From Nitrospirota bacterium (GTDB lineage: Bacteria; Nitrospirota; Nitrospiria; Nitrospirales; Nitrospiraceae): a DNA stretch of 64,000 bases. The notes beneath the pieces are model-generated. The model searched no databases and was not told where the DNA came from. It was given only the letters and a program-made list of their open reading frames with translations. Positions within the stretch are counted from its first letter, which is position 1; each line of letters begins with the position of its first letter. Location of the stretch: positions 1 through 64,000 of the forward strand of contig CAVPGK010000005.1 in assembly GCA_963703955.1 (NCBI GenBank), in the 5' to 3' direction. The position numbers and the translations under genes are program-made. Positions 75 to 56,431 of this stretch are shown in pieces.

Positions 75-617
75 CTAAAAGGACAGCGATGCTCTTTCGT
101 CTTGCGCTCTTGCCAAGTCATTCTGCCAGCCGCGATCGGTGACCGCGGGCATGCCGGCAAACGGCTTCTCGACGATATCTTTTTTCATCGGCCCGAGGGC
201 GCCGAGTAGTTCATTCTTCTCGCGCTCCGGAACCTTAAACTTGTTCAAGGTCGCAACTAGATCTCCCACCAGCGCATCAAACTCTACACTGGTGATTCCC
301 ATGCCCGCATGCGCGGTCTTCATGTCACGCCCAGTGTAAGTGCAGGGACCGCCCGAGGCCTGGCAAATCTGCTCCACGAGCATGGTCTTCAAACGTGGGA
401 GGTTGGCATTGGCGAACTTGCCGTTGATCCGATTATCTCCCGCCACCCGGGCGACGAAATCATCAACGACCGCGGTAATCGCCGGCTTGCCCCCCAGCCG
501 GTCGTACAGCGGTGTAACCGCAGCGGGCTTTGTGGTGCTTGACTCCATTGTGCTGCAACCGGCGACCGCGAGAGCAATTCCGAATACGAACAAGCGAGAC
601 AGACCATGTGAGCGCAT
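75..617 (-). CDS. glbN: Group 1 truncated haemoglobin, predicted lipoprotein
   Basis: [27 protein letters not shown] (proximal His) and EFDALV motifs; lipobox AVAG-C; AGGAGG RBS. Confidence 0.9.
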
Positions 618-1545: not shown

Positions 1546-2838
1546 ATGATGGCCGAGAATGAGCAAGACATCATTGGCGAACAGCGACGCGAGCTTGAGA
1601 CGGCGCGCCTGTTCCTGGCGCGCATGCAGGTCAGCGGAGGGAATTCTCTTAAGCAGGTGTTTGAGCGTAGCACAGAAACTGCTGCCGCGACCCTCAAGGT
1701 CGAACGTGTGAGCATTTGGTTCTTCGTTCACGACCGCCAGGCCATTCGCTGCCATGACCTGTACGAGCGGTCACGGAAGGAGCATTCTGAGGGGGCGATC
1801 CTATATGCCGCTGATTTTCCTATCTATTTCCGCGCGCTCGAGGAACGCCGCGACATTGCGGCCGCAGACGCGCGGACCCACCCCTTGACCCAGGAGTTAC
1901 GGGAAGCCTATCTGGAACCGCTTGGCATCACGTCCATGCTGGATTCTCCCATTTTTCGCGACGGACAAGTGATCGGAGTCGTGTGCCATGAACATTTCGG
2001 TCCGCCCCGAGAGTGGACAGTTGAGGAGCGCGACTTTACGGGCTCAGTGGCGGACGCCATCGCGTCAAAATTCGAGAGCGCGACGCGGCAGGACGTCGAG
2101 TTGTCGCGTCGGGCGTTGGAACTTCACACGGCAGAACTCCACAGGTTGGATGCCGTTAGCCGAGTGGCCGCTGGCATTGCGCATGACTTTAAGAATGTTC
2201 TGCTGGTGATCATCTGCAACGCAGACTTGATCAGGCGGGCTGAGGCTGCAACGCCTAACATCATTGCAATGGCCCAGGAGGTTCTTGAGGCGGCTGAGCG
2301 TGGCAAAGCGCTTTCCGACGAACTCTTGAACTTTGGGCGGGAGAAATCGCATCGGACGAGCGCGATCCAAGTCTCCGATGTTGTGCAGCGGTTTGTGGGG
2401 ATCCTCCAAACAGCGGTCGGCAGAGCCTATTCCATTCACTTCATCCGAGGCTCATCCCCTGGCCGAGTGTTCATAGAGCCTTCCCAACTCGAACGTGTCC
2501 TGTTGAACTTGTGCCTCAACGCGCGCGATGCCATGCCCCCCGGTGGAATCATAACGATCACGGTCCTCGAAACCCGTGTCACCGAAGCAATCGGTGCTCC
2601 AGGGGTCTATACGGTTGTCGAGGTGAGGGATACGGGTGCGGGGATGGATTCGAAAACCAGGGCGCGGATTTTCGAGCCGCTTTTTACGACCAAGGCTAAA
2701 GACAAGGGAAGCGGGCTGGGCCTAACAATCGTCCATCGAATCGTCGATCGGGCCGGCGGCTTCATCCACGTGACGACCGAGCCAGGGCAGGGCACATGCA
2801 TTCGAGTGTACTTGCCGCGAGTTTCTTCCGAAACTTGA
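1546..2838 (+). CDS. Soluble GAF-HisKA-HATPase sensor histidine kinase
   Basis: GAF (ITSMLDSPI, GVVCHEH), H-box AHDFKN, NLCLNARDAM, DTGAGM, FTTK, GSGLGL; GAGGAG RBS before ATG 1546. Confidence 0.9.
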   Translation: MMAENEQDIIGEQRRELETARLFLARMQVSGGNSLKQVFERSTETAAATLKVERVSIWFFVHDRQAIRCHDLYERSRKEHSEGAILYAADFPIYFRALEERRDIAAADARTHPLTQELREAYLEPLGITSMLDSPIFRDGQVIGVVCHEHFGPPREWTVEERDFTGSVADAIASKFESATRQDVELSRRALELHTAELHRLDAVSRVAAGIAHDFKNVLLVIICNADLIRRAEAATPNIIAMAQEVLEAAERGKALSDELLNFGREKSHRTSAIQVSDVVQRFVGILQTAVGRAYSIHFIRGSSPGRVFIEPSQLERVLLNLCLNARDAMPPGGIITITVLETRVTEAIGAPGVYTVVEVRDTGAGMDSKTRARIFEPLFTTKAKDKGSGLGLTIVHRIVDRAGGFIHVTTEPGQGTCIRVYLPRVSSET

Positions 2839-2852
2839 GCCAGGTTCGGCAA

Positions 2853-3048
2853 GAGGATTGACGGGGATTCGGGCGTGTCACGAAGTTTCGCAAATCATGA
2901 GAGTTCACGAGCCGAAGTCGTGAGTTTTCGCATGAAGCTGGGGAGACGGCTATGGAGGATGATCCAGAGCTGGAGAACTAGCTCTGGCTGGGGCGAGTGA
3001 TACCGAGCGCCTTCATGCGCGAGCTTAAGGTCGAAGGGTTCATCCCCA
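2853..3048 (-). pseudogene. Relic of a paralogous sigma54-activator 3' end plus its downstream UAS region (imperfect direct repeat of 10893-11081)
   Basis: Aligns by eye with 10893-11081; encodes [22 protein letters not shown] versus [20 protein letters not shown]. Confidence 0.85.
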
Positions 3049-6684: not shown

Positions 6685-7941
6685 TCAAGCAATTCGAATC
6701 CGGCGAGTGATCTGCCCATTGCTCTCCCAGTAGGTACGCTTGGTCGCGATGACGGGATCACTCATGGCTGGTTGAACATGCCCGGCTCTGTCGATGGCCC
6801 GTGATGTGATCGTATGCTCGCCCGCCCTGGCATCCTCCCAATCCAAATGCCAGAACTTCCACGCGAACTCATGCTCCTGCACGCGATCCACGGTCGCGGC
6901 ACGCCATGGTCCGTCATCGATTCGGACTTCCACACGTTGGATCGGCTTCCCCCAGGCCGCACCATAAATTCGGTGCTTGCCGTCCTTCATGGTGACCTTC
7001 GCCGTCACGGACTTCAGCAAGGCCGGCCCGACCACCTTCTGCGTCCAAACGACTTCCCCGTTCTCCCGCGGCTCTTCACGAATCGTGACATAGTCCTTGG
7101 CCATAAAACGGCCGGCCCAACGCTTCTCGACCACCTCAAGACGTTTCAACCATTTGACATTGGCCACCCCATACCATCCGGGCGCAATAAGCCGCAGCGG
7201 AAATCCGTGAAGCGGGGGCAACGGCTCGCCATTCATTTCATAGCAGAGGAGATTCGTGGGCGCCAATGCGTCTTCCAGCGACATGCTTCGGCTGAAATTT
7301 TGCTTCATCTTGATGTCTCGAACCTCTTCTTCCCCCTCGTCGCTGCCGAAGAACACCACCTCAATCCCGTTCTTCTTGATACCGGCTTCTTGTAGAATCG
7401 GCGCGAGTGGCGTCCCTGCCCACCTCGCATTCCCGATGCCGCCCGTGAACCAGTTGAAGCCGTGATTGCCGGCGCACTCCAGCGAGAACGTCACTTCCTG
7501 CCGCGGCCGTGCCTTGATCTGTTCCCAGGTGAGCGAGATCGGCCTCTCGACCAATCCGCCCACGTGCAGCCGCCATTCTTCGGGCCTGATAACCGGCCGG
7601 TTGTAGTGGCTGACGGCGAAAAAGTCGTTGTTGGGGGTAATCCAGGAACTCAATTGTTCCCAATTGCGCGTGTTCAACTCGCCGTATTGCCGAACGGCCT
7701 CATCTGGAGGTGCGGGAGCTTGATCCAGAAAAGGGATCACCTTCTCGCCCTCGCTGGTACGCCAGATTTGCGCAAACGACAGAGAATCCGACAAGGCCAA
7801 CGCCGCGAGCACGGAGCTTCCACGAATCAGGAAATCGCGTCGTGAAACGACGGAGACAGCGTGATGTGTCTCTAGTTGATGGTCAAAACATTCGCGCGGT
7901 GTCATCGTAGGCCTCTCTTTCTTATCGTGGGTTAAGGTCAC
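6685..7941 (-). CDS. Tat-exported sulfite-oxidase-family molybdopterin oxidoreductase (SorA/SoxC-like)
   Basis: SRRDFL twin-arginine signal, LECAGN Mo-ligand Cys, HGFPLRLIAPGWYG..VKWL, C-terminal dimerisation domain; true start may be ATG 7905. Confidence 0.9.
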   Translation of the reverse strand: MTLTHDKKERPTMTPRECFDHQLETHHAVSVVSRRDFLIRGSSVLAALALSDSLSFAQIWRTSEGEKVIPFLDQAPAPPDEAVRQYGELNTRNWEQLSSWITPNNDFFAVSHYNRPVIRPEEWRLHVGGLVERPISLTWEQIKARPRQEVTFSLECAGNHGFNWFTGGIGNARWAGTPLAPILQEAGIKKNGIEVVFFGSDEGEEEVRDIKMKQNFSRSMSLEDALAPTNLLCYEMNGEPLPPLHGFPLRLIAPGWYGVANVKWLKRLEVVEKRWAGRFMAKDYVTIREEPRENGEVVWTQKVVGPALLKSVTAKVTMKDGKHRIYGAAWGKPIQRVEVRIDDGPWRAATVDRVQEHEFAWKFWHLDWEDARAGEHTITSRAIDRAGHVQPAMSDPVIATKRTYWESNGQITRRIRIA

Positions 7942-9680: not shown

Positions 9681-10241
9681 TTATGAGTGTTGTACCGTCT
9701 CCACGGTGACCGACACCGGCACCGGATTCGACACGATGTCGAGCACCGGTGAGTACTTGCAGAGATCCTTCAGCGCATCGGCGGGCGCGTCTGTCTTGAT
9801 TGTGAGATTGACTCGGATGTTCTGGTAGCCTCTCCTCACACTGTCCGAGAGACCCAGAAAGCCGTGCAGATCGAGGTCCCCCTCGAGTTGAGATTCTACA
9901 GCCTCAATTGTGATCCCGCGTGCGGCTGCGTGATAGACGAGTGTTGTGGTCAGGCCCGCTGCCAACGCGTGCAAGACGAATTCCACGGGATTCGCCCCGT
10001 GATCCTCGCCCAGGAGCACTGGAGGCTCGTCCGCATCAAGGACGAAAGGCTTCATGCGCGTTGCGTCCTCTTGTCCGGCGCCGTAAAACTCTTTGATGCT
10101 CGTCCGATTGCGTCCGCCGGTCAGCCACGTATTGCGGGCGCGAAACTGGAATTTGGCGAGCCCCGGCCGAGCTTTAATGGCATCGATCGTCGACGACAGT
10201 TTGGTGACATTGACTCCGTTCACGTTGACATCCTTCATCAT
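9681..10241 (-). CDS. OsmC/Ohr-family protein
   Basis: NGVNV, ADEPPVLLGEDHGANPVE, EGDLDLHGFLG, SPV; AGGAGG RBS; the longer 10712 start overlaps another gene. Confidence 0.85.
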   Translation of the reverse strand: MMKDVNVNGVNVTKLSSTIDAIKARPGLAKFQFRARNTWLTGGRNRTSIKEFYGAGQEDATRMKPFVLDADEPPVLLGEDHGANPVEFVLHALAAGLTTTLVYHAAARGITIEAVESQLEGDLDLHGFLGLSDSVRRGYQNIRVNLTIKTDAPADALKDLCKYSPVLDIVSNPVPVSVTVETVQHS

Positions 10242-10387
10242 AGGGCATCCTCCTAGGTTGGTGTGGAGTAACGAACGAAACAACAAGTGATCCGCTTGAC
10301 GACACATGTTCTTCAACATGGTGCTCAGCTCGTCCCCGTCATTCGGCGCCGAATATCGGGACGGTCTTTCATCTGCAGACGCCACGG

Positions 10388-10786
10388 TCACCTCATGCCG
10401 CACGTGGCTCTCGCAGGAGCCAAGAAAAAGGTGCGACGCAACAGTCCCCATGAGAGGGGTTCTAGACGATTCCACGGCAGCAACGACAGCGAACGGGAGA
10501 GGAAACAATAGTCCACCAGCACTCTGGCGCTGGTCCCGATCAGTTGGACCCAATGAATCGCATGCAACGGCTCCCACAATCCCGCGAGCAGCAGGCCCAG
10601 ATACGCGATGCGAACCTGCACCGTCAGGGCGGTCACGTTCGATTCGCGTTGGGCGAAATGGACGGCCTGCACCCCGCAAAGCGCCATCGCCAGGTAGAGC
10701 CCCGGCCTCCACCCTGCCTCTTCAATGGCCAAGAGCAGGACTGTCACGAGCCAGTACCACCAGCCCATGTCTTGCTGCTTCTTCAT
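10388..10786 (-). CDS. Small integral membrane protein, first gene of the sigma54 operon
   Basis: About 4 hydrophobic segments, VQVR..Y and YC..SR.LSLLPWNR motifs; AAGGAG RBS. Confidence 0.75.
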   Translation of the reverse strand: MKKQQDMGWWYWLVTVLLLAIEEAGWRPGLYLAMALCGVQAVHFAQRESNVTALTVQVRIAYLGLLLAGLWEPLHAIHWVQLIGTSARVLVDYCFLSRSLSLLPWNRLEPLSWGLLRRTFFLAPARATCGMR

Positions 10787-10833
10787 TGGATATCTCCTTG
10801 TCTATTGATCAGCCCCACGTCGCTTGCGATACA

Positions 10834-10849
10834 AGCAGAGGTTGTGCCA
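10834..10849 (-). promoter_or_regulatory. Sigma54 -24/-12 promoter
   Basis: Minus strand TGGCACAACCTCTGCT (GG-N10-GC), 48 bp upstream of the 10786 start. Confidence 0.85.
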
Positions 10850-10917
10850 GTGCGCTTCCGTGCTCTCTTATTTAAGAATAAAGGGGAGTTACGAGGATTG
10901 ACGGGGATTCGGGCGTG

Positions 10918-10973
10918 TCCCGAAGTTTCGCAAGTCATGAGATTTCGCGAAGCGGAGTCGTGAGTTTTCACGA
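10918..10973. promoter_or_regulatory. Three palindromic UAS-like boxes (TCRTGA-N4-TCRCGA type)
   Basis: TCCCGAAGTTTCGCAA 10918, TCATGAGATTTCGCGA 10935, TCGTGAGTTTTCACGA 10958; all three recur in the 2853-3048 copy. Confidence 0.65.
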
Positions 10974-11016
10974 GAAGCTGGGCAGACGGCTGATGCAAAG
11001 AGATCCACCTGGAGAA

Positions 11017-12954
11017 CTAGCTACGGCGAGTGATGCCGAGCGCCTTCATGCGCGAGCTTAAGGTCGAAGGGTTCATACCCAGGAGACGAGCGGCGCCGTT
11101 GTCGCCGGCCACCCGCCACCCGGTCGATTCCAGAGCACGGAGCAGATTCTCGCGTTCCAAGGCCTCCAGTTCGTGGATGGTTCGAATACGCGAGGTCTTC
11201 TCGTCGGGCGGCACAGCGGCTTCGGTCGTGGTGAGTCGGACCGTTTCCGGAAGCGCCCGGTCCAGATTGATCCGGCCATCTCGAGAGGTGATCACCGCCC
11301 GTTCGATAACATTCTCGAGCTCGCGCACGTTGCCGGGCCAACTGTAGGCGCGTAACCGCCGGATGCATTCCTCCGAGAGAGGCTCGATCCGGCGCCCCAG
11401 TTGTTGTGCAAATTTTTGCACAAAGGTGCTGGCCAGCAGCGGGATATCTTGACTGCGTGCTCGTAGCGGCGGCACGTCGATGGGAAAGACATTGAGGCGG
11501 TAATACAGATCTTCTCGGAACCTTCCTTCCTGCGCGGCCTGACGGCGATCGCGATTTGTGGCGGCGATCACGCGCACGTCCACCTTCCGCGTCTTGGAGC
11601 TACCCACCGGTTCGAATTCGCCATCCTGGAGGACACGCAGTAACTTCGACTGGAGGTCGAGCGGCAGTTCGCCGACCTCGTCCAGAAAGATCGACCCACC
11701 GTCCGCGAGCGTGAATCGCCCATCACGTTTTGCCGTGGCCCCCGTGAACGCGCCTTTCTCATGGCCAAAAAATTCGCTCTCGATCAGGGTCGCGGGGATC
11801 GCGGCGCAGTTGACCTTGACAAGCGGCTTGTCGCGTCGCCGGCTCGCAGCATGAATCGCCCGTGCCAGGAGTTCCTTCCCAGTGCCGGTTTCGCCGAGGA
11901 TGAGCGCGGTGGCGTCTGTCTCCGCCACCTGTGTAATATCGCGCAAGACCCGCACGATCGGCTCGCTGCGCCCAACGATCGTATCGAAATTGTGGAGCGA
12001 CTTGATCTCCTCGCGGAGATACTCGGCCTCATTGGTCAGCGACTGAATCTTCTGCTCGGCTTCGAGCCGGTCATTGACGTTCCGGAGAATCAGCGTGTAG
12101 AAGCGTTGGCGATGCATCTCGAACCCCGACAAAGTCGCTTCTGCGGGAAACTCCCTTCCACCGGGACACCTGGCCTTCAACCCCCCGGGAATCCATAGAT
12201 ACCGCCGCCCTTCCGGCCGACTATTAAGCTCTTGGATCAACGCTTCGAGCTTGGCTCGTCCCTCCTCTGCGAGAAACTTGGTGAACTCCTGCCCCACGAC
12301 CTGGTCCGTTTCGCATCCCAACACTTTTTGCACGGCGGAGTTGATCCGGGTCACCCGGAGGGTCTGGTCCAGCTCGATGATCGCGTCCATGGCGCTGTCC
12401 ACGAGGCGGCCGAGCTTTTCCTCACGCTCGCGCACCTCTCGCTCCGCCCGAAGCCGCTGCAGCTCGGCCGCCGCACGCGCGGCGAAAATGCGAAAGAGCG
12501 TGAGTGCGCGGGGCTCCTCAGGCATCGGCCGCCGGTCGATGACCGCCACGTGGCCGAGAATTTTCCCGTCCACATCCAACAAGGGCGCACCCATGTAACT
12601 GACAACGCCATTCTGTTTGATCTCCGGGTCGCCGGGGTACAGCTCCAAGACGTTCTCGGGGATGTGAACAAGTCGGGTTTGTGTAATGACCTGCTCACAC
12701 GGCGTGCCGCTGATGTCAATCTCATAGCCGTGGACCCATTGCCCGCCCATCCAGAAGGCAAGCGCCCGAAGCCGGCGGGATTCTTCGAGGTATTCGGTCA
12801 CCCAGGCAGCGTGCGTATTTAGCGCCTTGGCAAGATTCTGAACAAGCGACTGGAAGAACCGTTCTCCGGTCTCGCTAGCCGTGCCTTCAAAGATCGTTCG
12901 CAGGGCCGCGTCCTCGTCGAGGTCACGCAATGGAAGCGCATTCTCTGTCGTCAT
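11017..12954 (-). CDS. Sigma54-dependent enhancer-binding protein, GAF-PAS-AAA+-Fis HTH
   Basis: [45 protein letters not shown]-terminal HTH. Confidence 0.95.
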
Positions 12955-20756: not shown

Positions 20757-22984
20757 ATGAGAGCCCGACAATCACCGCACCAGGGCTCGACAGGTCGATT
20801 CATCGGCCTTCGGACCAAATTTGTGGTTTTCATCAGCTTGATCATTATCGCTGTCTGCACGGGCTTGAGCTGGTACTTCATCCACCAACAGGCCCAATTG
20901 CTGACGCGCACGTTGACGGACACCGGATTACTATTGGTCAACAATCTGGCTCATAACAGTCGATATGCGGCCATTACCGAGGATCTGACAGATCTGGAGC
21001 AGTTCATTGATGGCGTGATGGAGGACGATGAGGTGGTGTATGCCGTGATCACCGAGACCGGACGGGTCGCGAGTGGTGGCGAGGAGCAAGGGGCATTTGG
21101 TCGACCGGATCGCTTTCTCCGTTCCCAGGATTCACCCCTCTATCCGGATGAGTCCCTCGCCCGTCCGTTCGACGTCTCACAGAGTCCCATGGTGATTCGG
21201 GTCTCGACGGGCGGAGGACTGATCGCCGAGCCATCTATGACTTTGCGATTCCGATCCTTAGGCGCCCGCGCTCGTCATCCGACGTGCCTCTCCAATACTC
21301 CTTGGAGTCCGGTGAGAGCGACAGATCAAGAAATGTGAAGCGGGACTCAAATCCGCAAATCGTCAGCGTCATAGAGATCGGCCTCACGGAGGCCAAGAGG
21401 CGACAGAGTCTCGCCGAGGCCGTCAGGCGGGTGGTCATCATCACCGTTCTCTTCATCCTCGGCGGGATTGCGGCCACCATCGCGCTCGCCGCTCGGATTA
21501 TCACTCCGTTAAGGACCCTGGCCATGGTCGCGGGACGGGTCGCGGAGGGCGATTTGACGGTGTCCGCGGAGCCGGCCACCCATGATGAAGTGGGACAGCT
21601 GACATCCATTTTCAATCGGATGACCCAGTCGCTCAAGGAGCGTGACGAGGCCATTTCGTCTCAGATTGGGACGATTACCAAACAGGTGACGCAACTCACT
21701 GCGTTGAACCAAGCCGGTGCGGCGATCACCTCCATGCTCGACGTGGAGAAACTGCTGACGAGTGTCTTGCGTCTCCTGACTGAAAATCTCGGCTACCGGC
21801 GGGTGTTAATCATGTCGTACGATCCGAATCGAGGAGTCGCTTATGGTCCGAGAGTTGCGGGGCTGCCCGACGAGATCGAACGGCAAACTCGAGGGCTGGA
21901 AATATCGGTTCAGGATGATCGGAGCGTCAGAGCGGAACTGCTCATCCACGGGCGTGCGCTTCTCATTTCGGATCTCGAGAGGGTCTCGGACCGAATCTAT
22001 CCCCCACTTCTTCCGTTGGCCCGTCAAATCGGAGTCACCAGCTTCGTCGGTGCGCCACTCAAGAGCTCGCAGCGCATTCTGGGATTCATCGCGGCAGATC
22101 GAGGCAAGGAGGCGTGCACGGAGGAGGATCTGGACCTCCTGGTGACGCTAGCGAGCCAGATTGCCGTGGCGATCGACAACGCCCAGGCGTACCACGAACT
22201 ACAGCACCTCACGCAGACGCTGGAACGACGAGTCCAAGAACGGACACAGGACTTGGTAACGGCCAATGAGCAGCTCCAGGAGCTGGACCGTCTGAAATCG
22301 GCTTTCGTCTCGATTGTCTCACATGAGTTACGCACCCCGATGACCTCCATCAAAGGCTATGTCGAAAACATGTTAGATGGCCTGACGGGTGCTCTCACCG
22401 AGAAGCAGTCGTATTATCTGAGCCGGGTGAAATTCAACATCGAGCGTCTGACGCGGATGATCAACGATCTGCTGGATCTCTCTCGTATCGAAGCGGGCCG
22501 GGTCGAGCTTGTCTTGACACACATTCTCGTGGCCGATCTGCTGGCGGAAACCACGGAGGCGTTACAATCTGTCGCGGACACGAAGGGCGTCGCGCTGCGC
22601 GGCCAATTCCAAGGAGATCCGTGGGCGATGCAGGTCGATCGTGACAAGCTCCATCAGATTCTCACGAACCTGATTCAGAATGCGATCAAATTTACCCCCA
22701 AAGGCGGCGAGGTGCGGCTGGACGCCTCTTTGCGGAACGATGGATTCGTGCAATTCTGTGTGGCCGATACCGGCTGCGGGATCGCTCGCCATGAACTCTC
22801 TAAGATCTTCGAGCGATTCTACCGCGGCGAATCCGTGCAAGCCGAACAGCGAGGGGCCGGGTTGGGTTTAGCCATTACAAAGAGCCTGGTTGAACTGCAT
22901 GGCGGCCAGATATGGGTGGAAAGCACGCTCGGTCAGGGCAGTCAATTCTTCTTTACCATCCCGATGGTCCCACCGGATCGATGA
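20757..22984 (+). CDS. Membrane HAMP-GAF-HisKA-HATPase kinase, frameshifted between about 21055 and 21240
   Basis: TM1 after GLRTKF, IYDFAIPI in the downstream frame, TM2, HAMP (DEVGQL..FNRM), VSHELRTP, NLIQNAIKF, GAGLGL. Confidence 0.85.
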
Positions 22985-23405: not shown

Positions 23406-25050
23406 ATGAGGAAGACGTGGAGTTTTGTCGTGATGTCGATCGCACTGCTTCTCGCCGCTGTACCCAATTACGGGGATATGGGGAAAAGAGAGTCATCCGT
23501 TCGGTACCTTGATCAGGGTTGGAGCCCGGAATTGCGACAGCAGTTTTACCATACTCCGCAGGGGACCGAACTGATTCCCTATCATTGGTTTCTCCACCTG
23601 AAACAACATGATGGGGCTCTTTTCAAAGATGACATCACGGCGCGGTATGGCTTTATCCCCGATCCAACACATCCGGACGGTTTGCCCGTGGGATTCACAA
23701 TAAGCCCGGACGGATTCCTCGGCTTGAATTGCGCGGCGTGTCATACCAGTCAAATTCGGTATCAAGGCAAGACCATCTATATCGATGGCGGCGCTTCGAT
23801 GCAGAACAACCTTGCATTCATGAAAACGATGTTCGTCTCTCTTGGCGCAATTCTCAAAGATGACAACAAATTCACTCGCTTCGCTCAGGAAGTCGGCAAG
23901 GCCAACGATCAGCTGAAGGTGGAAGTCGCCGAATTTCTTAAGCTGCAGGAGAAGCCATTGTTGGAAGCCAAGGAGAAATGCCAAGACCCCGACAAGAAGA
24001 GTATCTACGCTAACCCCGAGTATTCGGTTTACCCCAAGGATGGTTGGGGATTTGGTCGCTTGGATGCGCTGGGGCGAGGAGGCAATACGCTGTTGACCCG
24101 ACGTGATCCATGCGCTCTTGAACGAGCTGATGCCAGTGAGTATTCCTAGCCTTTGGGGAACCTGGAGGTACGACTGGGTGCAGTGGAATGGTTCGATTGA
24201 AAATCCGCTGGCGCGAAATATCGGACAGACCGTGAGCTTAAACGCCGAGACCGTTGAGATCAAGGCCCTTGATCAGTTGGAAAACTACGTTCAGAAGCTC
24301 AAACCACCTTCCTGGCCGGACGATTTTCCTTCTATCGACAGAAAATTGGCGGCAAAAGGGAAAGAACTCTACCAGGGGCGAGATGGGAAAGGACTATGTG
24401 CCGGTTGCCATATGCCTCCGGTCGAACCCAATCCCTGTGATGGGAAAGAAGAGTTGACCATGAAGTTGATTGCAGTTGAAGACATCAAGACCGACGAAAA
24501 GACGGCTGCTAACTTTGTAGACCGCAAGATTAAGACCGGCCAGTCAGCCGCGACGATCATGAAAGAGACAACTGACACAATAATGGAAAGACAATTTGCA
24601 GAGTTGAAGCTTTCGGTGAATGAGCAAAACAGGATGCAGAGATGCCGCAAAAATGAATGGCGAGCGCGACCGGAGTACAAAGCACCTACCCACGCCGGGG
24701 TATGGGCGACCCCGCCCTATCTGCATAATGGGTCCGTTCCGAATTTGTATCAACTGCTTCTCCCAGCAGAGCAACGTGATAAGTCGTTTTGCGTCGGCAG
24801 TCTTGAATTTGAGCCAAAGCACGTCGGATTCAAAACAGATGTGTGCGTCGAAGGAGAAGCTCCATTCGATACCTCACGTCCCGGCAATATGAACACCGGG
24901 CATGAATTCAGAAACGACGACAGAGCCGGGCACACATTTACACGAGCCCAGTGTGAGGATCGTATGAAACATGCCAAGGATGGTATTCTCGGCTGTGAGA
25001 TTGCGTCTGAAGATCGATGGGCTATTGTCGAGTACATGAAAACCTTATGA
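23406..25050 (+). CDS. Exported di-haem c-type cytochrome (RoxA-like/peroxidase-related); frameshift near 24135
   Basis: Signal peptide, CAACH and CAGCH, GFGRLDA, WATPPYLHNGSVPNL, NTGHEF; adding two C to gatGCCAGTG restores ADAPVS. Confidence 0.85.
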
Positions 25051-25115
25051 TTAGGACGACGACGCAAGTCGGTTACAGGTGAGAGCCGCCGGTACCTCGC
25101 AGTCACGTTGCGACG

Positions 25116-27845
25116 ATGACTGAACTCTTCTCGAAAGAGCATACGATCATCGAAAAGGGGTCCATGGAGTACCGCCCCTTCGGGGTGGACGAAGATGGCG
25201 AGAAAATCCACGACATCAGCGGGGTCATCGTTCGGTCGAGCGTGGCGTATTTGGAAGAGTCGATCTCGCGCGACGCCGGACCGGAGGCGGGTGCCCGAGC
25301 TGTCCAGGAGTTGTGCCGCCTGCTGAATGAGCGGCTTCGCGATCCTGTTTACCACGTCACTCCCGCCTTTCTCAAGAATGTCTGGAACGGCTACTCATAT
25401 GAGTTCGTCTCTTTCCTGCGTGAATTCTGTGCGAATATCTTGAACGACCCCGACTTTACTGCCCATGCGGCGAAGGAGAAACATAATATCTCGCCGCTGC
25501 TCCAGATCTTAGGCCGACCGTTCTCGCTATCCGACATCTACAAGATGTGGGCCCATTTCGGGGAGAAGTACGCGAAGGGCTCTCTCCAGTTCGAGGTGGG
25601 GCCCGTGACGGAGCGTTCGGCCGTGTTGCGGATGAAATTTGCGGACAGGGTCTATCGGCAATTCGGTCCGTACCGGAAGCGCTGCGTCGAAATGGCCTGC
25701 CAATCGGCCAAATTCGGTCTCTCGATGGTTCCTGCGCAGATCCATCACCTGCGTCCGGCGACCGTCACGGACCGCACCTGTATCGTGAATGGTGATGAGT
25801 ACTGCGAATGGGAGTTCAAGTGGTCCCCTCAGCCTACTGACAGGCTGTTCCGCTCGATGTGGGGGCTGCTCGCCGGGACTGCGGCTTATGCGTACCTTCG
25901 TCTGTTCCATCCGGCGGTCACCGTCGTCGAGGCCTTAATCGTTGCCTTAGTACCGGCGGTCGTGGCCTGGCTGGTCGCCAGCCGACCGCTGCAGAGGCAG
26001 GTCGAAAGCCTGAAGGATCTCATCAAGGAGCAAGACCAGGCCGTCGAAGCTCGCCACGAAGAGCTGCGCGAAGCCTATGTTGAGCAGGAACAGACGACCG
26101 TCGAGTTGCGCCGGAAAGTCGGGCAATTGACCACGTTGCACCGCGCGGGGCTCCTCTTCAGCTCCACCCTGGACCGGGAGGCGTTATTGCGCGAGGTCCT
26201 GGAAACGATCGTCCGGGACCTTCATTACGACCGGGCCATGATTGCCTTCTATGACCGGGCCCGACAGATCACCCATGATTTTCGAGTCATAGGCGTCTCC
26301 GAGGATATTACGGCGTTTGCACGCTCGCGAGAGCTGCCGATTACCGATCCCAACAGCATTGAGGGAACCGTGATTCTCCAGGGAAAGCCGCTACTCGTGA
26401 CCGATATTAGAGACGTGTGGGACCGCCTGCACCCCTTGAATCAACAACTGGTTTCAATGGCCAACGTCACGTCGCTGATTTCCGTTCCCCTGAAGGTCAA
26501 GGATCTCATCATCGGCTCCTTGACCGTCGATCGGGCCCAGGGGCATTCACTCACGCAGGATGACCTCGACATGATGGTGACCGTCGGGAGCCAGGTCGCA
26601 ATCGCGCTGGATAACACAGAGGCTTACCGCCAGATCGAAGCGTTGAACCTGGGGCTTGAAGAGCGGGTACGCGAGCGGACCGCAGAACTGAGGGCCGCCA
26701 ACGAACAGCTCAAGCAGATGGACCAGCTCAAGTCTCAGTTTCTAGCGCACGTGTCCCATGAGTTGCGCACGCCGCTGACGAGCATCACCGGATTCACCGA
26801 CAACATGCTGGAAGGGCTGGCCGGCTCCTTGAGCGCGAAACAGGAACAGTATCTGGCCCGGATCAAAGCGAATGGCAATCGGCTGACCCGGATGATCACG
26901 GACCTATTGGACCGTTCCCGGATTGAAGCCGGCAAGCTCGAGCTGTCCCTGGGACCGGTCGTCCTGACCGCGCTGGTCTCGGAGGTGATCGAGCAGCTCC
27001 GGCCGCTTGCGCGGATGAAACGCCAGCGGCTGGACCTTGAGTGCCCGGAGCCCGACCTGGTCGTCTGGGCCGACGCCGATCGGTTGAGCCAAATCCTGAC
27101 GAATCTGATCGACAACGCCATCAAATACACGACCGACGGCGGGTCGGTGATGCTCAGAATTGCACTGGAGGAGCATATGGCCAGAGTGTCGGTGACCGAT
27201 ACCGGACAGGGCATTCCTCGCGACGCCCTCCCGAGGCTTTTTGATCCGTTCTTCCGATCTCGCCATCACGAGAAGAGCCAGATCAAAGGCCTGGGCCTGG
27301 GGCTCTCGATCGCGAAGGATCTGGTCGAGCTTCATGGCGGCGCGATCTCGGTTCAGAGCGAGGTGGGACGAGGAAGCGTGTTTCATTTTACGCTTCCGGT
27401 TCATCGGGGCTTTGAAAAGAGACTGTCGCTTTCTCCATCGCCGAGCAAGCGCATCCTGGTCGTGGATGACGAATCGGACATCCGGCAATTACTGTGTGAC
27501 CGGCTGCAGTCGGACGGATTCGTCGTGCAGACGGCGGTTGATGGGCGCGACGCGTTGGCGTCGCTGCGGCTGGGTTCCGTGGATGGCCTGATCTTGGATA
27601 TCGGCATGCCCGATATCGACGGGCTGGAGGTGCTTCGTGAGATTCGTGAGAAGTATCCTACGGTGCCCGTGGTGATGATCACGGCGGTCGAGGCCCGGGA
27701 ACGCGCGGTCCTGGCCTTGGAAGCGGGCGCGCAGGCGTACCTACTCAAGCCGTTCGACCCGGCACAGTTGCACCAAGTCGTGACTCGCTGGTTTCGACCG
27801 AATGAGGCGGGAACAGAGGAGGGTAGGACGAAGGGGAGGGGATAG
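25116..27845 (+). CDS. Hybrid kinase: V4R-like N-domain, 2 TM, GAF, HisKA, HATPase, REC
   Basis: TCIVNGDEYCEWEFKW (V4R-like Cys pattern), VSHELRTP, NLIDNAIKY, GLGLGL, C-terminal VVDDE..LDIGMPD..KPF. Confidence 0.9.
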   Translation: MTELFSKEHTIIEKGSMEYRPFGVDEDGEKIHDISGVIVRSSVAYLEESISRDAGPEAGARAVQELCRLLNERLRDPVYHVTPAFLKNVWNGYSYEFVSFLREFCANILNDPDFTAHAAKEKHNISPLLQILGRPFSLSDIYKMWAHFGEKYAKGSLQFEVGPVTERSAVLRMKFADRVYRQFGPYRKRCVEMACQSAKFGLSMVPAQIHHLRPATVTDRTCIVNGDEYCEWEFKWSPQPTDRLFRSMWGLLAGTAAYAYLRLFHPAVTVVEALIVALVPAVVAWLVASRPLQRQVESLKDLIKEQDQAVEARHEELREAYVEQEQTTVELRRKVGQLTTLHRAGLLFSSTLDREALLREVLETIVRDLHYDRAMIAFYDRARQITHDFRVIGVSEDITAFARSRELPITDPNSIEGTVILQGKPLLVTDIRDVWDRLHPLNQQLVSMANVTSLISVPLKVKDLIIGSLTVDRAQGHSLTQDDLDMMVTVGSQVAIALDNTEAYRQIEALNLGLEERVRERTAELRAANEQLKQMDQLKSQFLAHVSHELRTPLTSITGFTDNMLEGLAGSLSAKQEQYLARIKANGNRLTRMITDLLDRSRIEAGKLELSLGPVVLTALVSEVIEQLRPLARMKRQRLDLECPEPDLVVWADADRLSQILTNLIDNAIKYTTDGGSVMLRIALEEHMARVSVTDTGQGIPRDALPRLFDPFFRSRHHEKSQIKGLGLGLSIAKDLVELHGGAISVQSEVGRGSVFHFTLPVHRGFEKRLSLSPSPSKRILVVDDESDIRQLLCDRLQSDGFVVQTAVDGRDALASLRLGSVDGLILDIGMPDIDGLEVLREIREKYPTVPVVMITAVEARERAVLALEAGAQAYLLKPFDPAQLHQVVTRWFRPNEAGTEEGRTKGRG

Positions 27846-27846
27846 C

Positions 27847-29217
27847 GTGGTTCGACGAGCATCGGCTGTCCTCCATTCTGTCTGCTGCACGACCTGTCTC
27901 GCCCTCGCCTGGCTGACTTCTTCCCCACCGGCGCATGCGCAAACTCCTCGTATCCAAGGACAAGGATCGGCGGCGTCTGGCATGGCCAATGCATTTGCGG
28001 CCCAGGCCGATGACCCGTCCGCCCTGCACTACAACCCTGCCGGCATGACCCAGTTGCAAGGCGTGCAAAATATGTTTGGGGCTCTGTTCGTCGGCGGGCC
28101 GACGAACTTTACGAGTCCTACCGGTGTTGAGGTAACGGGGGATCGAGGCGGAAGCGTGGCGTGGCCGCCGCCGGGCCACATTTACCTGACCGCCAATCTG
28201 AAGGATCTGGGAGTGAGGTCCCTCGGAGATTTGACGGTCGGAGTGGGGTTGAACAGCCCGTTCGGCTCGCTCAGCCGGTATCCGGTCAATGGTCCATTCA
28301 GAACCGCGGTCACATTCAGCACGCTCCCGCTGTTGGATATCAAGCCCACCATCGCCTACAAAATCAACGATCAGCTATCCCTAGGCCTGGGCGCGGATAT
28401 CTATACCTTTTCCGGATTGTTCGGTGAGGGACACGTCGAGCTCAAGACGGCGAACACGGCCATGACGCAGCAATTCGAGATCAACGGAAGCGACACCGCT
28501 GCGGGATTTAATGTCAGTCTCCTGTATACGCCCTTCCGCAATGCGGACGGAAAACCGCTGGCCAATGTCGGGCTGGTCTATCGAAGCCGCGCGACCCTTC
28601 ATCTCACTGGACTGTTTCTCATAAACGGCGCGCCAACGGCCGATACGGCTGCGACCCTTGTCTTACCGCAGGTTTATTCGGGGGCGATTGCGGTCTGGCC
28701 GATCCGCGATGCGGAGCGCGAATGGAAGCTTGAGCTGGATGTGGACTATGTCGGATGGAAGGCCAATCAAAATCTGGATGTGCAGCTGTCTACAGGTGGG
28801 GTCATCCCTCAGCCCCAGAACTGGAGCAACAGTTTCACCGTGATGATCGGAACCGAGTACAGATGGCTTCGGCTCACGCGTCTGCCGGATTGGGAGCTTG
28901 CGTTGCGAGGAGGGTATGCCAATCAGCAGACGCAGGTTCCTGATTTGACCTTCAATCCCGGTGTGCCTTCGGCAAATACTCACATCCCGTCCGTCGGTCT
29001 GGGGTTCCTGTGTCAGGAGAACGGATCCTTCCTGGGTCTCAAGTGCGGCCAGCTCGGATTCGGAACGCTGAAACCGAAAGCCTTTGGGATCGATATCTCC
29101 TACCAGGCTGCGATCTATGAGGTCCGCACGATCACCGGTAACCGGAACCCCACGGTGAACGGGACGTATGACACCCTCATTCAAGCGGGGGGAGTCAGCC
29201 TGCGGTTTATTTACTGA
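27847..29217 (+). CDS. OmpP1/FadL/TodX-family outer-membrane transporter
   Basis: GMANAFAAQADDPSALHYNPAG hatch motif, amphipathic beta strands, terminal aromatic (RFIY). Confidence 0.9.
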   Translation: MVRRASAVLHSVCCTTCLALAWLTSSPPAHAQTPRIQGQGSAASGMANAFAAQADDPSALHYNPAGMTQLQGVQNMFGALFVGGPTNFTSPTGVEVTGDRGGSVAWPPPGHIYLTANLKDLGVRSLGDLTVGVGLNSPFGSLSRYPVNGPFRTAVTFSTLPLLDIKPTIAYKINDQLSLGLGADIYTFSGLFGEGHVELKTANTAMTQQFEINGSDTAAGFNVSLLYTPFRNADGKPLANVGLVYRSRATLHLTGLFLINGAPTADTAATLVLPQVYSGAIAVWPIRDAEREWKLELDVDYVGWKANQNLDVQLSTGGVIPQPQNWSNSFTVMIGTEYRWLRLTRLPDWELALRGGYANQQTQVPDLTFNPGVPSANTHIPSVGLGFLCQENGSFLGLKCGQLGFGTLKPKAFGIDISYQAAIYEVRTITGNRNPTVNGTYDTLIQAGGVSLRFIY

Positions 29218-29467
29218 TCGCACCGTCGAACCTCACCCGTGTCGTGTCCCCTGAAACTAATGAGCCACCTGGGTTGCCTGTTGCGGCTTAGCGTCAACGT
29301 CGATCGCATGATTCGAATGATTGCGGACCCCTGGAGTTGTGGTTCGGCGTATCGAAGGTTGAATAGGACCATCTCGCTCTTCATTTCTGAATCCTGGATT
29401 CAGCACGAGGTAACCAAACAGTTTGGGTTCTTAGGACTGACAACTAATATGAGTTGGTCGTCGGTGG

Positions 29468-29628
29468 TGTATCTGACTGGATAACACCCTGTATTCAATT
29501 CGATACGATTTTTATCATCCCCGTGTGAGTGCTTCCTCGTCCATGAGGGATAATTCATCGGATCATCAACGTGTTTCGAGCGGTTGCCATATATTGTTTT
29601 GCGGCCATTTCGTGGCACAGCGGTTGCT
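29468..29628 (+). promoter_or_regulatory. Sigma54 promoter cassette 3
   Basis: UAS 29468-29507; IHF-like CATCAACGTGTTT 29564-29576; TGGCACAGCGGTTGCT 29613-29628. Confidence 0.88.
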
Positions 29629-29680
29629 CCATCTCTGCTCGAAAGCGGTTGTCGATGGAGGAGGGAAGGAGGGAGAAACC

Positions 29681-29845
29681 GTGGAAGCGATGGCCTGGGG
29701 AATGATCGTGACGGGATGCACCCTGTTCGGAATGCTGGCGCTGTGGATGCTTAGCGATCGCATAGCCCATATGCCGCTGCCGAAAGAGATGGCTGACAGC
29801 TATCCACTGACTTCTCAGGTGGCTGAACTGACGAAGGCGGCATGA
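29681..29845 (+). CDS. 54-aa single-TM small protein ending in -AA
   Basis: AGGAGG RBS before GTG 29681, hydrophobic N-terminal helix, ends ELTKAA. Confidence 0.7.
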   Translation: MEAMAWGMIVTGCTLFGMLALWMLSDRIAHMPLPKEMADSYPLTSQVAELTKAA

Positions 29846-29885: not shown

Positions 29886-32627
29886 ATGAGCCCCACGGTT
29901 GACGAGGATGATTTGTCTAGCATTCTCATCGTAGATGACGAGCCGGATATCCGGGAGACCCTCAGCGATATGTTGGAACACGAGGGGTACCGGGTTCACG
30001 CGGTGGGGACCGGGGTCGCCGCGATTCAGCAGGCGTCCCAATTCCGATATGGAGCTGTTTTGCTGGACATCGGGCTGCCGGACCTCGACGGGCATTCCGT
30101 CTTGAAAAACTTGATGGAAATGGATTCCACGCTGCCGGTCGTTATTCTAACCGGGCAGGCGACCGAACAGAATACCATTGCGCCGTTGACGAAGGGCGCT
30201 TTCGCCTATGCAACCAAGCCATATAATCCGAAAGAAATCAAGGCCGTGCTCCGCCGAGCCGTGGGGGTCAGGGCTCTGTCCGCCAAGGCCGAAACGGTTG
30301 AAACCGCCCTTAGTGAAAGCGAGGAACGGTTCAAGTCGGTGGTTCAGTCTACCGCGGACGCGATCATCTTGGCGGACGAGGGAGGGCGAATCGTTTTTTG
30401 GAATAAGGCCGCGCAGCGCATGTTCGGCCATGCGGCCGATGAGGTCATGGGGAAGTCTCTGACGATGATTATGCCGGAGCGCTACCGCGTGGGCCATCAA
30501 CGAGGGCTGGATCGGGTCCGACTCTCGGGCGGGACTCACGTGATGGGAAAGACCTTGGAGTTGCACGGTCTCCGGAAAGACGGCAGCGAGTTTCCGGTGG
30601 AGTTATCGCTGGCCATGTGGGGGGCGCAGCAAGCACGGTTTTACGGCGGAATCATCCGCGACATCACCGAGCGGAAAAGGGTTGAGGACGCGCTTCGACG
30701 GAGCGAAGAACGCGTCCGGCAACTGGCCGAGAATATCAGGGAAGTCTTTTGGCTGACGGCGGTCGATAAGAACGAGATGATCTACGTCAGCCCGGCCTAT
30801 GAGGCGATATGGGGGCGGACCTGCGAGAGTCTCTATGCCGCTCCCCGCTCCTGGCTTGACGCCATCCATCCGGAAGACAAGGAACGGATCGTCGGCGCGC
30901 TGCCCAAACAGGTGAAGGGAGAGTATCAGGAGGAATATCGGATCCTGCGCCCGGACGATGGCGTGGAGTGGATCCGAGACCGCGCCTTTCCGATCCGCGA
31001 TGAAACCGGGAAGGTCTATCGTGTGGCGGGATTGCGGAATGCATCACCGCCCAGAAAATTGCGGACCAGCGATTGGCCGCTCAGTATGCGGTGGCCCGCG
31101 CCCTGTCCGAATCCGCCACGTTGGCCGAAGCCACCCCGAAGATTCTACAGGCCATCTCCGAGAGTCTGGGGTGGGATATCGGAGCCCTCTGGTCGATCGA
31201 TGAGCAGGTCGGTGCGTTGCGCTGTGTTCATGTCTGGCATGCTCCCGGCATCAAGGCCGTGAGCTTCGAGACGCTCAGTTGGGAGATGGTCTTTCAACGT
31301 GGCATCGGACTGCCGGGACGGGTATGGGCCGGTGGCGAGCCGGTCTGGATAACGGATATCACCAGGGACCCGAATTTCCCGCGTGCCGCCGTTGCCGGCA
31401 AAACGGGTCTGCACGGGGCTCTGGCGTTTCCGATCAAATTGCGTACCCAGGTATTGGGGGTCCTCGAATTCTTCAGCCGCGAGATCCGCCAGCCCGACGA
31501 AGATCTCCTCCGCATGCTCGGCGCCGTCGGCAGCCAGATCGGTCAGTTTACGGAACGCAAGCAGGCGGAGGAAGCCTTACGGGTGGCCTACGACAAGATC
31601 GACGCGATTCTCGTGTCGTTGCCGTGCGCGGTGTTGATCGTTGATCAGGATCAACGGGTGGTCTACGCCAACCCGCTGGCGTGTCAGCACTTTTGGCCGG
31701 AGCATGGGACGCTGGCCGGAAGTTTGTTGCATGACGTATTGCCGCTGACCGCCGTGCAGTGGCAACGCCTGCTGACCGACCTGCGTGAGACGACCGCTCA
31801 GAGCAGGTCACCCCAAGAGCGCGAGTTTGAGGCGCATAAGCGCATGTATCGATATCGGCTCTTTCCCGTCACGCTTCGGGAGACCTACCGCCTGCAGGCG
31901 GGCATCGTCCTCTGGGACATTACAGAACAGCGGTTACTTCAGGATCAACTGATCCAGGCGGAGAAGCTGTCCAGTCTCGGCACGTTGGTGTCCGGTATGG
32001 CTCACGAGATCAATAATCCCGTTCAGGGCATCATGGGGATGGCGGAGATCATTTTGCAGGAAGAGAATCCGGACAGAAGTGAAGGAATACGCCGGTGATA
32101 TCGTCAAATACTCCGAGCACGTCGGCTCGGTCGTTCGGGACTTCGCCTGTTATGCCCGGCCGGCTTCCCGAGACCGTATCACGGAGCTGGATTTCTGCGA
32201 ACGTCTGTCCGAGGCGGTGAAGTTGGTCCAGAGGGGCCCGAAGTTCGGACACATCCAGGTGACGACCGATTATCAGCCGGTTCCTCGGTTCAAAGCGCAT
32301 CGCACCGAAATCGATCAGGTGTTTATCAATCTGATCAGCAACGCCGTGGACGCGATGGCCGGCAAGGGGCGGCTGACCTTATCGACCTTGATGGAGGGAG
32401 ACGTTATCACGGTGCGTGTCTCCGACACGGGGAGCGGGATTCCCAAGTCGATCTTAAGCAAGATCTTCGATCCGTTCATGACCACCAAAGATCCGGGGAA
32501 AGGGACGGGATTGGGCCTTAGCATCGTTCATCGGATCGTATCAAAATATGGCGGGCGGATCGGCGTGGAGAGCCAGGAGGGCAAAGGCACCACGTTCACA
32601 ATTCAATTTCCACAAGAACCGAAATAA
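29886..32627 (+). CDS. REC-PAS-PAS-GAF-PAS-HisKA-HATPase kinase split by frameshifts near 31030 and 32078
   Basis: Three overlapping ORFs join into one domain order; [29 protein letters not shown]. Confidence 0.85.
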
Positions 32628-54482: not shown

Positions 54483-55301
54483 TCAAAGTTTGACGGCGGG
54501 ATTGAGTCGGTTTCCGAGCCGCAGGATGGCGAGGGCGGTAATTGGAAGATAGATGAAAATGCCAGCCAGCCCGATCAGCGGTTCATTGATCCAAAACGTC
54601 ATCATCAAGTTGAAGATCACCACACCGTAGTAGAGCCCGCACCCCAGGAGAATTTTTCCTGTGACAGGCTGATCACCCTGTTGGCTCGGGGAGGGAAGTC
54701 GGCGGTCCATCGTGAAATAAATGGTCAGGGCGATCAGGCCCACCACGGCCCATCCGACGTAGTTGCCCAAGGGCACGCCGAAATGGATCCCGGGATCAGG
54801 ATAGTAATAGATCCGGCCCAGGAACCACCGGTCACCGCGGAGCGCCACGGGATCAATGATCATATCAAAGAAGGTGAAGAGAACAACCGTCAATCCCAGA
54901 ACAGACCAGGATGTGCGGACGTCGCGATCGAACAGCAATCTCAGGCTGGGAAATGACCGAGTATGTCTCTCCACCGGTCGTGCGGGCAAGAGAAACAGGA
55001 GCGAGAGACAGTAGCTCGCGTAGAGGAGGAAGGTGAAGGAAAGCGAGTCCATGAACGGCACATTGAAGAGGTAAAGTTCCTGCCCGATCGTCGAACCCGT
55101 GTAGTGGTACCAGCCGAACGGAATCCCGGTTCGGGTCGAGGAGAACTCGCACACGAAGGCCGTGATCCACGTGATGAAAAAGAACAGTCCCGTCTTCCGC
55201 CACCCGAGCAATCGGCTGGCTGAAAAAAGAAACACGGCGAGAAAGAGGAAAACGTAGGGCCGAAGGACAATGGTCTTGAGGAGGAGCTCGAAGGTCTTCA
55301 C
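54483..55301 (-). CDS. CruF-like membrane protein (carotenoid-biosynthesis/hydratase family)
   Basis: E..S.RTG.PFG.Y.Y, D..IDP.A, FGVPL.NY.GW. Confidence 0.8.
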   Translation of the reverse strand: MKTFELLLKTIVLRPYVFLFLAVFLFSASRLLGWRKTGLFFFITWITAFVCEFSSTRTGIPFGWYHYTGSTIGQELYLFNVPFMDSLSFTFLLYASYCLSLLFLLPARPVERHTRSFPSLRLLFDRDVRTSWSVLGLTVVLFTFFDMIIDPVALRGDRWFLGRIYYYPDPGIHFGVPLGNYVGWAVVGLIALTIYFTMDRRLPSPSQQGDQPVTGKILLGCGLYYGVVIFNLMMTFWINEPLIGLAGIFIYLPITALAILRLGNRLNPAVKL

Positions 55302-55314
55302 GAGGTGTCAGTGC

Positions 55315-55415
55315 TCAGCAATCAGCGTACAGCAAGTGCAGTGATGGTTTGGAAGATCTGCAGGATCTTCCGTCGCATTTCGCATTCCTTGCTGAAGGCT
55401 GAAAGCTGACTGCTG
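55315..55415. repeat. Inverted heptamer arrays (TCAGC.. / GCTGA..)
   Basis: tcagcaa tcagcgt acagc ... gctgaag gctgaaa gctgact gctg. Confidence 0.6.
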
Positions 55416-55420
55416 CTTTG

Positions 55421-56407: not shown

Positions 56408-56431
56408 GCGTCATCCTGAATCAATTTACTG

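Follow-up and report, generated by a model that had tools for sequence, protein, structure and literature searches.

A conserved kinase–FadL gene pair of Nitrospiraceae with an H-NOX/V4R-type sensor domain, a candidate module for the perception of hydrophobic molecules

The 64,000-nucleotide stretch of DNA analysed here (the window: positions 1 to 64,000 of contig CAVPGK010000005.1, Nitrospirota bacterium assembly GCA_963703955.1) harbours a gene for a hybrid histidine kinase that is followed immediately by a gene for an outer-membrane channel of the FadL family. This kinase–FadL module is real and conserved, and no description of it was found in the literature searched. The features of the two genes are as follows.

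25116–27845, plus strand: hybrid histidine kinase of 909 amino acids (Pfam domains, translation of the open reading frame)
25116–25835, plus strand: N-terminal sensor domain, residues 1–240 (AlphaFold fold; H-NOX/V4R-fold core at residues 34–238)
25698–25823, plus strand: putative zinc site, the Cys cluster C195, D219, C222, G226, C230, E231, W232, W236 (conservation and MopR spacing)
25854–25982, plus strand: hydrophobic hairpin, residues 247–289 (Kyte-Doolittle; predicted topology)
26169–26615, plus strand: GAF domain, residues 353–498 (Pfam GAF, 3.5e-15)
26730–27404, plus strand: HisKA, residues 539–606, and HATPase_c, residues 653–763 (Pfam, 1.2e-20 and 4.5e-32)
27453–27782, plus strand: receiver (REC), residues 780–889 (Pfam, 9.2e-31)
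27847–29217, plus strand: FadL/OMPP1/TodX-family outer-membrane channel (Pfam Toluene_X, 7.5e-32; GTG start)

The kinase is a hybrid histidine kinase by its HisKA domain with H-box, its HATPase_c domain and its receiver with acceptor aspartate; the phospho-accepting His548 and the receiver Asp828 were placed by motif. Residues 1–250 gave no Pfam match even at an expectation value (E) ≤ 10, and no NCBIfam match. As stated in the initial annotation, which had been made from the letters of the window, the end of the N-terminal domain (residues 222–236) reads CIVNGDEYCEWEFKW.

The kinase ends with the TAG at 27843–27845 and FadL starts with the GTG at 27847, which leaves a spacing of 1 nt and agrees with the earlier reading of a FadL/OmpP1 gene 1 bp behind the kinase. 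A GGAGG (27835–27839) stands 7 nt before this GTG. The alternative start ATG 27802 from the mechanical call of open reading frames (ORFs) corresponds to a 44-nt overlap with the kinase, and homologues align only from about residue 27–40 of this longer ORF. The product belongs to the family of Pfam Toluene_X (PF03349, OMPP1/FadL/TodX; E 7.5e-32, 110.8 bits, cut-off 29.7). With the equivalog model of Escherichia coli FadL (NF007988) it reaches no more than 25 bits where 585 are required, so the gene is a member of the FadL family and not a FadL orthologue. Its N-terminus resembles a signal peptide and has an NPA tripeptide nearby. Genes for β-oxidation, ring cleavage, LuxI or LuxR were not found among the 57 non-overlapping ORFs of ≥100 amino acids in the window, in line with the earlier remark that no β-oxidation or aromatic catabolic genes lie nearby. 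Neither the kinase nor any other of these ORFs contains the LuxR autoinducer-binding domain PF03472.

Linkage of the two genes was surveyed in 121 Nitrospiraceae genomes including the window's own, and merging of tandem sensor-domain copies gave 125 kinase genes. The sensor domain is carried by 95 of these genomes and a close FadL relative by 92. FadL lies directly downstream on the same strand at 46 of the 125 kinase genes, 2.9–4.1 kb downstream at three more (with a broken or contig-edge ORF), and upstream within 2.5 kb at nine. Another nine have a non-adjacent FadL within 25 kb on the contig, and for three the distance exceeds 25 kb; all linkage counts rest on the best 150 of 170 FadL matches. 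Adjacency in either order occurs in 15 of the 39 genera sampled. Of four genomes checked from a sister family in the same order, two have FadL immediately ahead of the kinase. The linkage of kinase and FadL is strongly conserved, and the neighbourhood survey that had been suggested as a check of the initial annotation thereby confirms their co-occurrence.

Twenty loci were compared in detail; they were chosen for adjacency and inform on synteny, not on frequency. Three flanking contexts were observed. Five loci and the window show radical-SAM and Usp genes, then RoxA-like gene, kinase and FadL. Ten loci show sirohaem-synthase-like and YkoF-like genes, kinase and FadL, followed by alr, frr and pyrH in the opposite orientation. 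In three loci a DUF676 esterase, an unknown gene and a DyP::P450 fusion of about 1000 amino acids precede FadL and then the kinase. In two loci the signalling island is syntenic with that of the window, and FadL followed by the kinase occupies the place where the window has RoxA-like gene, kinase and FadL. The kinase–FadL pair is the sole constant across these contexts. For the small ORFs behind FadL (29239–29484 and 29525–29845) no conserved counterpart was found in the 20 related loci.

A FadL tree was calculated from 25 family rows and XylN of plasmid pWW0, with rows of less than 330 aligned residues dropped (one truncated copy). Copies in the order kinase-then-FadL form one clade (15/15 rows, support 89/51) that includes FadL of the window, those in the order FadL-then-kinase form two clades, and LuxI-linked copies form another (4/4 rows, support 99/100). 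The window's own genome has a second FadL beside UPF0114 and acyl-CoA dehydrogenase genes (locus L024:6483-8288, minus strand; loci outside the window are cited by number with their own coordinates). It groups in the tree with the FadLs that in two relatives occupy the site of the window's RoxA-like gene, kinase and FadL, which suggests a local rearrangement.

The N-terminal domain was modelled with AlphaFold (AF2) on a 36-sequence alignment, with a mean predicted local distance difference test (pLDDT) of 84.7 and a predicted template modelling score (pTM) of 0.83. A Foldseek search of the PDB with this model placed H-NOX on top (E about 1e-4, probability 1.0), Bet3 at rank 39 and the MopR sensor at rank 49. 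With VIA-align, the model superimposes on H-NOX with Z 13–14 and a root-mean-square deviation of 2.5 Å over 169 residues, spanning H-NOX residues 1–182, and accordingly has the H-NOX fold. Z values of 11.4 and about 8.5 were obtained for the drug-binding VirS N-terminal ligand-binding domain and for palmitate-binding Bet3. In the solved structures of H-NOX, VirS and Bet3, hydrophobic ligands sit in an internal cavity. The earlier assignment as a V4R-like domain is upheld insofar as the model falls into the H-NOX/V4R/Bet3 fold class and the V4R-type three-cysteine cluster (C195, C222, C230; a putative zinc site) is present.

Conservation was assessed in 106 domains after removal of redundancy at 60% identity. 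Each of the cysteines C195, C222 and C230 is kept in 92% of them, an acidic residue (Glu or Asp) occupies position 219 in 84%, and E231, W232 and W236 are kept in 92–98%. In MopR the zinc site is completed by a glutamate. The Cys spacing is 27/8 here compared to 26/8 for MopR C155/C181/C189, the zinc ligands of that protein, whose cluster is described as structural in the part of PMC9556785 cited here. Among 50 distant relatives, 18 have a Pfam V4R match at E ≤ 0.01, with the matched segment aligned with C195–W236, and two of the 50 reach the cut-off of this model (PF02830, 31 bits) with 33.8 and 31.0 bits. Searching the genome that contains the window with Pfam V4R gave no match. A cluster of the ESM Atlas with V4R on 96% of its members scored 0.88, to be taken as a lead only.

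H-NOX domains are marked by a conserved proximal histidine and a YxSxR propionate motif. At residue 147, which the order of helices and strands suggests as the proximal position, the window protein has His; across the 106 domains it is His in 12%, Arg in 52% and Tyr in 16%, and it varies among orthologues. No YxSxR motif was found in the sensor domain. Since position 147 is rarely His and the motif is lacking, the domain is not a canonical haem sensor. On the modelled structure, it is a new sequence family within the HNOB/V4R superfamily, combining an H-NOX-like shape with a putative V4R-type metal cluster.

A word-based search returned 430 relatives of the sensor domain, and those with a named source were all from Nitrospira, Nitrospiraceae or Nitrospirae. 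When 1.84 billion representatives were searched exhaustively with HMMER, only 252 clusters were obtained at E ≤ 1e-3. A survey of 251 genomes of the phylum detected the domain in 36 of the 39 from the window's family, in 17 of 17 of the sister family, in 1 of 1 of a third family (f17) and, as weak partial matches only, in 4 of 6 of a fourth (f5), and in none of the genomes of the remaining 23 families. The sensor-domain family is thus almost confined to Nitrospirales in the surveys made here. It is a mobile sensor module: its partners are histidine kinases, hybrid kinases, adenylate cyclases, GGDEF, MCP and SpoIIE domains, usually with the same hairpin and GAF, and it occurs singly or as two to four tandem copies. 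An ORF of 1847 amino acids in locus L011:8568-13904 (minus strand) encodes a kinase with four tandem sensor domains ahead of the hairpin, and two- and three-copy forms exist in other genomes.

Within residues 1–235 the Kyte-Doolittle value of every 19-residue stretch stays at or below 0.69. Strong hydrophobicity is confined to residues 268–288, which follow a weaker conserved helix at 248–266, and this hairpin pattern is retained in the family consensus. As judged from the sequence, the sensor domain is probably cytoplasmic and the two helices would form a hairpin in the membrane that leaves hardly any loop in the periplasm; a cytoplasmic location is suggested by the missing export signal, the up to four copies before the hairpin and the Cys cluster. 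With almost no periplasmic part, kinase and FadL could be coupled only via a diffusing molecule.

We therefore favour, with some reservation, the reading that kinase and FadL probably constitute one co-transcribed module that perceives a hydrophobic small molecule. FadL would pass a lipid-like compound across the outer membrane, from where it may partition into the inner membrane. There it would be captured by the cytoplasmic, membrane-tethered H-NOX/V4R-fold domain, whose fold may be held by a zinc site of three cysteines and an acidic residue as in MopR and PoxR. Binding is proposed to alter autophosphorylation of His548 through hairpin, coiled coil and GAF domain, and the phosphoryl group would move on to the protein's own receiver Asp828 and finally to a phosphotransfer protein and a regulator encoded elsewhere. 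The loci examined show no conserved gene for an Hpt protein or a DNA-binding regulator next to the pair. The initial annotation had the kinase feed a sigma-54 regulon, an output that was rejected: the only sigma-54 enhancer-binding protein of the window (11017–12954, minus strand; GAF-PAS-AAA-HTH) has no receiver domain.

Several observations speak against perception of a hydrophobic molecule by such a module. The window's own domain has no Pfam V4R or HNOB match even at E ≤ 10, and neither phmmer nor a profile of the domain run against PDB sequences gave more than chance-level matches. Alignment of the domain profile with the XylR A domain of pWW0 by hhalign reached a probability of 0.19 over 13 columns, which with a single-sequence template is too weak either way. 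The actual sensor could be the GAF domain instead of the N-terminal one. A promoter and terminator scan of the locus gave counts no higher than shuffled sequence, so co-transcription is deduced from the 1-nt spacing. For 55 of the 125 kinase genes no FadL is among the matches listed on the same contig, where many contigs measure a few kb. Both kinase paralogues in the window's own genome have no FadL next door, and genomes within one family are non-independent samples.

Directly upstream of the kinase lies a further gene, which had been missed in the initial annotation.

23406–25050, plus strand: RoxA-like exported di-haem c-type protein (NF040606; ORFs 23406–24149 and 24103–25050, one frameshift)

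A single frameshift near 24100–24140 splits this gene. Both ORFs exceed the cut-off of NCBIfam NF040606 (150 bits) with 158.3 and 255.6 bits, respectively, and also match the Pfam RoxA-like cytochrome c module. The protein has a signal-peptide-like N-terminus and one CxxCH per piece, two in all. For the model of an intact orthologue (pLDDT 84.8) the only significant PDB match was the latex dioxygenase RoxA (4b2n, Foldseek E 1.2e-10), with Z 17.5 over 397 residues compared to about 11 for the classical di-haem peroxidases (CCP) and MauG. With the RoxA equivalog NF050033 a score of 42 bits was obtained against a cut-off of 1000, and the protein is therefore termed RoxA-like and not RoxA. The family occurs in 27 of the 121 genomes and stands directly upstream of a domain-bearing kinase in 19 of them. 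The earlier statement that the window lacks a signal synthase accordingly holds for LuxI and not for this di-haem oxygenase-type gene. Public contigs of four runs do not reach the frameshift site. One contig of an RNA library covers 24990–25257, from the last part of the RoxA-like gene into the first part of the kinase gene, and cannot show a transcript.

In total, four apparent frameshifts fall within about 12 kb (20757–22984, 23406–25050 and 29886–32627 of the window). They divide a HAMP-GAF kinase gene and the RoxA-like gene into two pieces each and a REC-PAS-GAF-PAS kinase gene into three; relatives have one uninterrupted ORF for each of these genes. As the three other frameshifts disrupt neighbouring kinase genes that are intact in relatives, an assembly error is as likely as decay.

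We also inspected 79 RoxA-like loci of other bacteria. An adjacent catalase-like gene was found in 24 and an LCAT/DUF676-type lipase in four, and a sensor domain or close FadL was nearby only in two Nitrospira loci; the underlying neighbour BLAST used Nitrospira queries, with which distant FadLs could be missed. The catalase-like protein of about 380 amino acids stands beside the RoxA-like gene in Pseudomonas and others (L038:8766-9911 and 23 loci among L029–L107), and the two could be a two-enzyme pair for lipid oxygenation.

Haem-oxygenase and lipase genes are recurring neighbours of the module. DyP::P450 fusions, i.e. a D-type DyP peroxidase joined to a cytochrome P450, were located directly upstream of FadL and kinase in three loci (L013:10939-13836, minus strand; L015:4701-7760, plus strand; L016:10579-13350, minus strand; about 920–1020 amino acids). 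The DUF676 esterase is present in four loci and stands two genes upstream of the fusion in L015 and L016. Tentatively, and with the odds clearly against it, an oxidised-lipid or isoprenoid circuit can be envisaged for a subset of Nitrospira, in which the RoxA-like enzyme would make a signal outside the cell from an unsaturated lipid, FadL would import it and the kinase would receive it. In other lineages the DyP::P450 fusion, sometimes with a lipase, would take the signal-making role of the RoxA-like enzyme. A row of genes about 25 kb from the module (54483–57576, minus strand) encodes a carotenoid-biosynthesis protein, a 3-beta-HSD/epimerase-type reductase and a polyprenyl synthetase, which could be a source of isoprenoid substrates.

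Such a circuit would resemble the oxylipin system of Pseudomonas aeruginosa. There, the oleate-diol synthases PA2077 and PA2078 have been modelled on RoxA and named fatty-acid di-haem Ccps, as outlined in PMC4496055. They are secreted and make oxylipin autoinducers, for which the FadL-family ExFadLO was proposed as importer towards the cytoplasmic receptor OdsR, according to the part of 10.1101/2021.09.08.459554 used here. As far as these accounts go, exported RoxA-like di-haem oxygenases (OdsA/OdsB), a FadL-family channel and a cytoplasmic receptor are shared by both systems. In contrast to the LysR regulator of P. aeruginosa the receptor here is a kinase, and the three genes lie in one cluster. 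The enzyme here is a member of NF040606 that is likened to PA2077/PA2078 by description, and its copy in the window is frameshifted.

The haem-enzyme neighbours allow another interpretation, in which the domain would act as a redox switch, based on thiols or zinc, that responds to peroxide or lipid peroxidation; the neighbours would be the peroxidases it controls and FadL part of an envelope response. The conserved cluster of three cysteines would suit this, as would the NCBI name of the upstream family (‘di-heme cytochrome C peroxidase’) and the DyP peroxidase domains in three loci. We nevertheless consider it unlikely. The MopR cluster is reported to be structural in the cited part of PMC9556785, the upstream protein is far closer to the dioxygenase RoxA than to peroxidases, and 10 of 15 kinase–FadL loci examined have no haem-enzyme neighbour. 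Moreover, FadL as the constant partner would be left unexplained.

Quite improbable is also a role in outer-membrane or lipid homeostasis, with the kinase reading the state of the membrane via its hairpin and FadL merely co-expressed. This would fit the conserved hairpin and the occurrence of LolA and lipid-related genes nearby, but it leaves the large conserved domain of ligand-binding type and its tandem arrays unexplained, and the parallel with luxI-luxR-FadL loci described below points to signal traffic.

The initial annotation regarded the pair as a candidate LuxR-independent receptor for acyl-homoserine lactones (AHLs). In its favour, FadL has been linked to long-chain AHLs in Sinorhizobium, as stated in the part of PMC9938287 cited, and the kinase-linked FadLs are 50–55% identical to the luxI-luxR-linked FadL paralogues of the same family. 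However, LuxI was found in only 38 of the 121 genomes and not in the window's own, which is 82% complete. One genus (g31) has the kinase–FadL pair in 10/10 genomes and LuxI in 0/10; in another (g8) LuxI is found in 0/6. A FadL paralogue lies 1.2–1.5 kb from luxI in 20 of the 38 LuxI genomes. In three inspected AHL loci luxI, luxR (on the opposite strand) and FadL stand together and PF03472 is present; FadL is divergent from luxR in these loci (L025:4971-8086, L026:4669-8035 and L027:4561-7700). No paper describing the luxI-luxR-FadL arrangement was found in the literature searched. The AHL system of the family thus has its own LuxR receptor and its own FadL clade, and no paper linking V4R to AHL sensing or to Nitrospira, as had been mentioned in the initial annotation, was found in the literature searched. 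AHLs are hence a very improbable ligand of the kinase, and this part of the earlier proposal is not supported. The paired FadLs rather support the general idea of one FadL paralogue per lipophilic-signal receptor.

A true H-NOX haem sensor for NO or O2, relevant as this would be to a nitrite oxidiser, can practically be set aside despite the full-length H-NOX domains among the best structural matches and His147 of the window protein near the supposed proximal position, given the variation at this position among orthologues, the missing YxSxR motif and the lack of a Pfam HNOB match.

Perception of a hydrophobic molecule by kinase and FadL, the reading favoured above, can be compared with several known systems. 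With the V4R domains of the phenol and xylene sensors MopR, PoxR, DmpR and XylR the sensor domain shares the fold class, the three-Cys spacing and, presumably, cytoplasmic sensing of hydrophobic compounds. On pWW0, xylR and a FadL-family gene of the xyl upper operon likewise lie on one replicon. In contrast, the MopR/XylR group consists of soluble sigma-54 activators beside catabolic operons, whereas the protein described here is a hybrid kinase anchored in the membrane, and its gene neighbourhood lacks catabolic genes; the protein has no detectable sequence similarity to that group, and its model is nearer to H-NOX than to MopR. Similar to the sensor domain, H-NOX (HNOB) domains pair with histidine kinases, and the fold matches over their full length. 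They differ in that the conserved proximal His and YxSxR are absent here, that a putative zinc-type Cys cluster is present and that the kinase is fused behind a membrane hairpin. An HNOB-like secondary structure together with the V4R three-Cys cluster, the combination seen in the sensor domain, was described for MetOD1 of archaeal response regulators in the part of Galperin et al. 2018 (PMC5847659) cited here. The likeness is one of description only, and in methanogen response regulators MetOD1 serves as an output domain. Finally, membrane hybrid kinases of the LuxN type sense AHLs through a multi-pass membrane domain. Sensing of a lipophilic autoinducer by a hybrid kinase without LuxR is proposed here as well, with a soluble cytoplasmic domain and a hairpin in place of the multi-pass sensor.

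Nitrospira oxidise nitrite in soils, waters and treatment plants, and beyond LuxI/LuxR few of the cues they sense are known. If true, the oxidised-lipid circuit would be the histidine-kinase counterpart of P. aeruginosa oxylipin quorum sensing in key nitrifiers. The sensor-domain family is new to the Pfam and NCBIfam models, FadL is its testable partner, and the RoxA-like enzyme is a candidate signal maker in part of the family. In Nitrospiraceae, three separate FadL clades adjoin three kinds of receptor, suggesting as a general rule that FadL paralogues may be dedicated entry gates for lipophilic signals.

In the window's own genome, one of the paralogous kinases (locus L001) is flanked by genes for patatin-like phospholipases (1713-2975, minus strand, and 9950-11812, plus strand) and followed by a lone receiver gene. 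The window also holds a bacterial-like globin (75–617, minus strand) and a sulfite-oxidase-type molybdoenzyme (6685–7941, minus strand).

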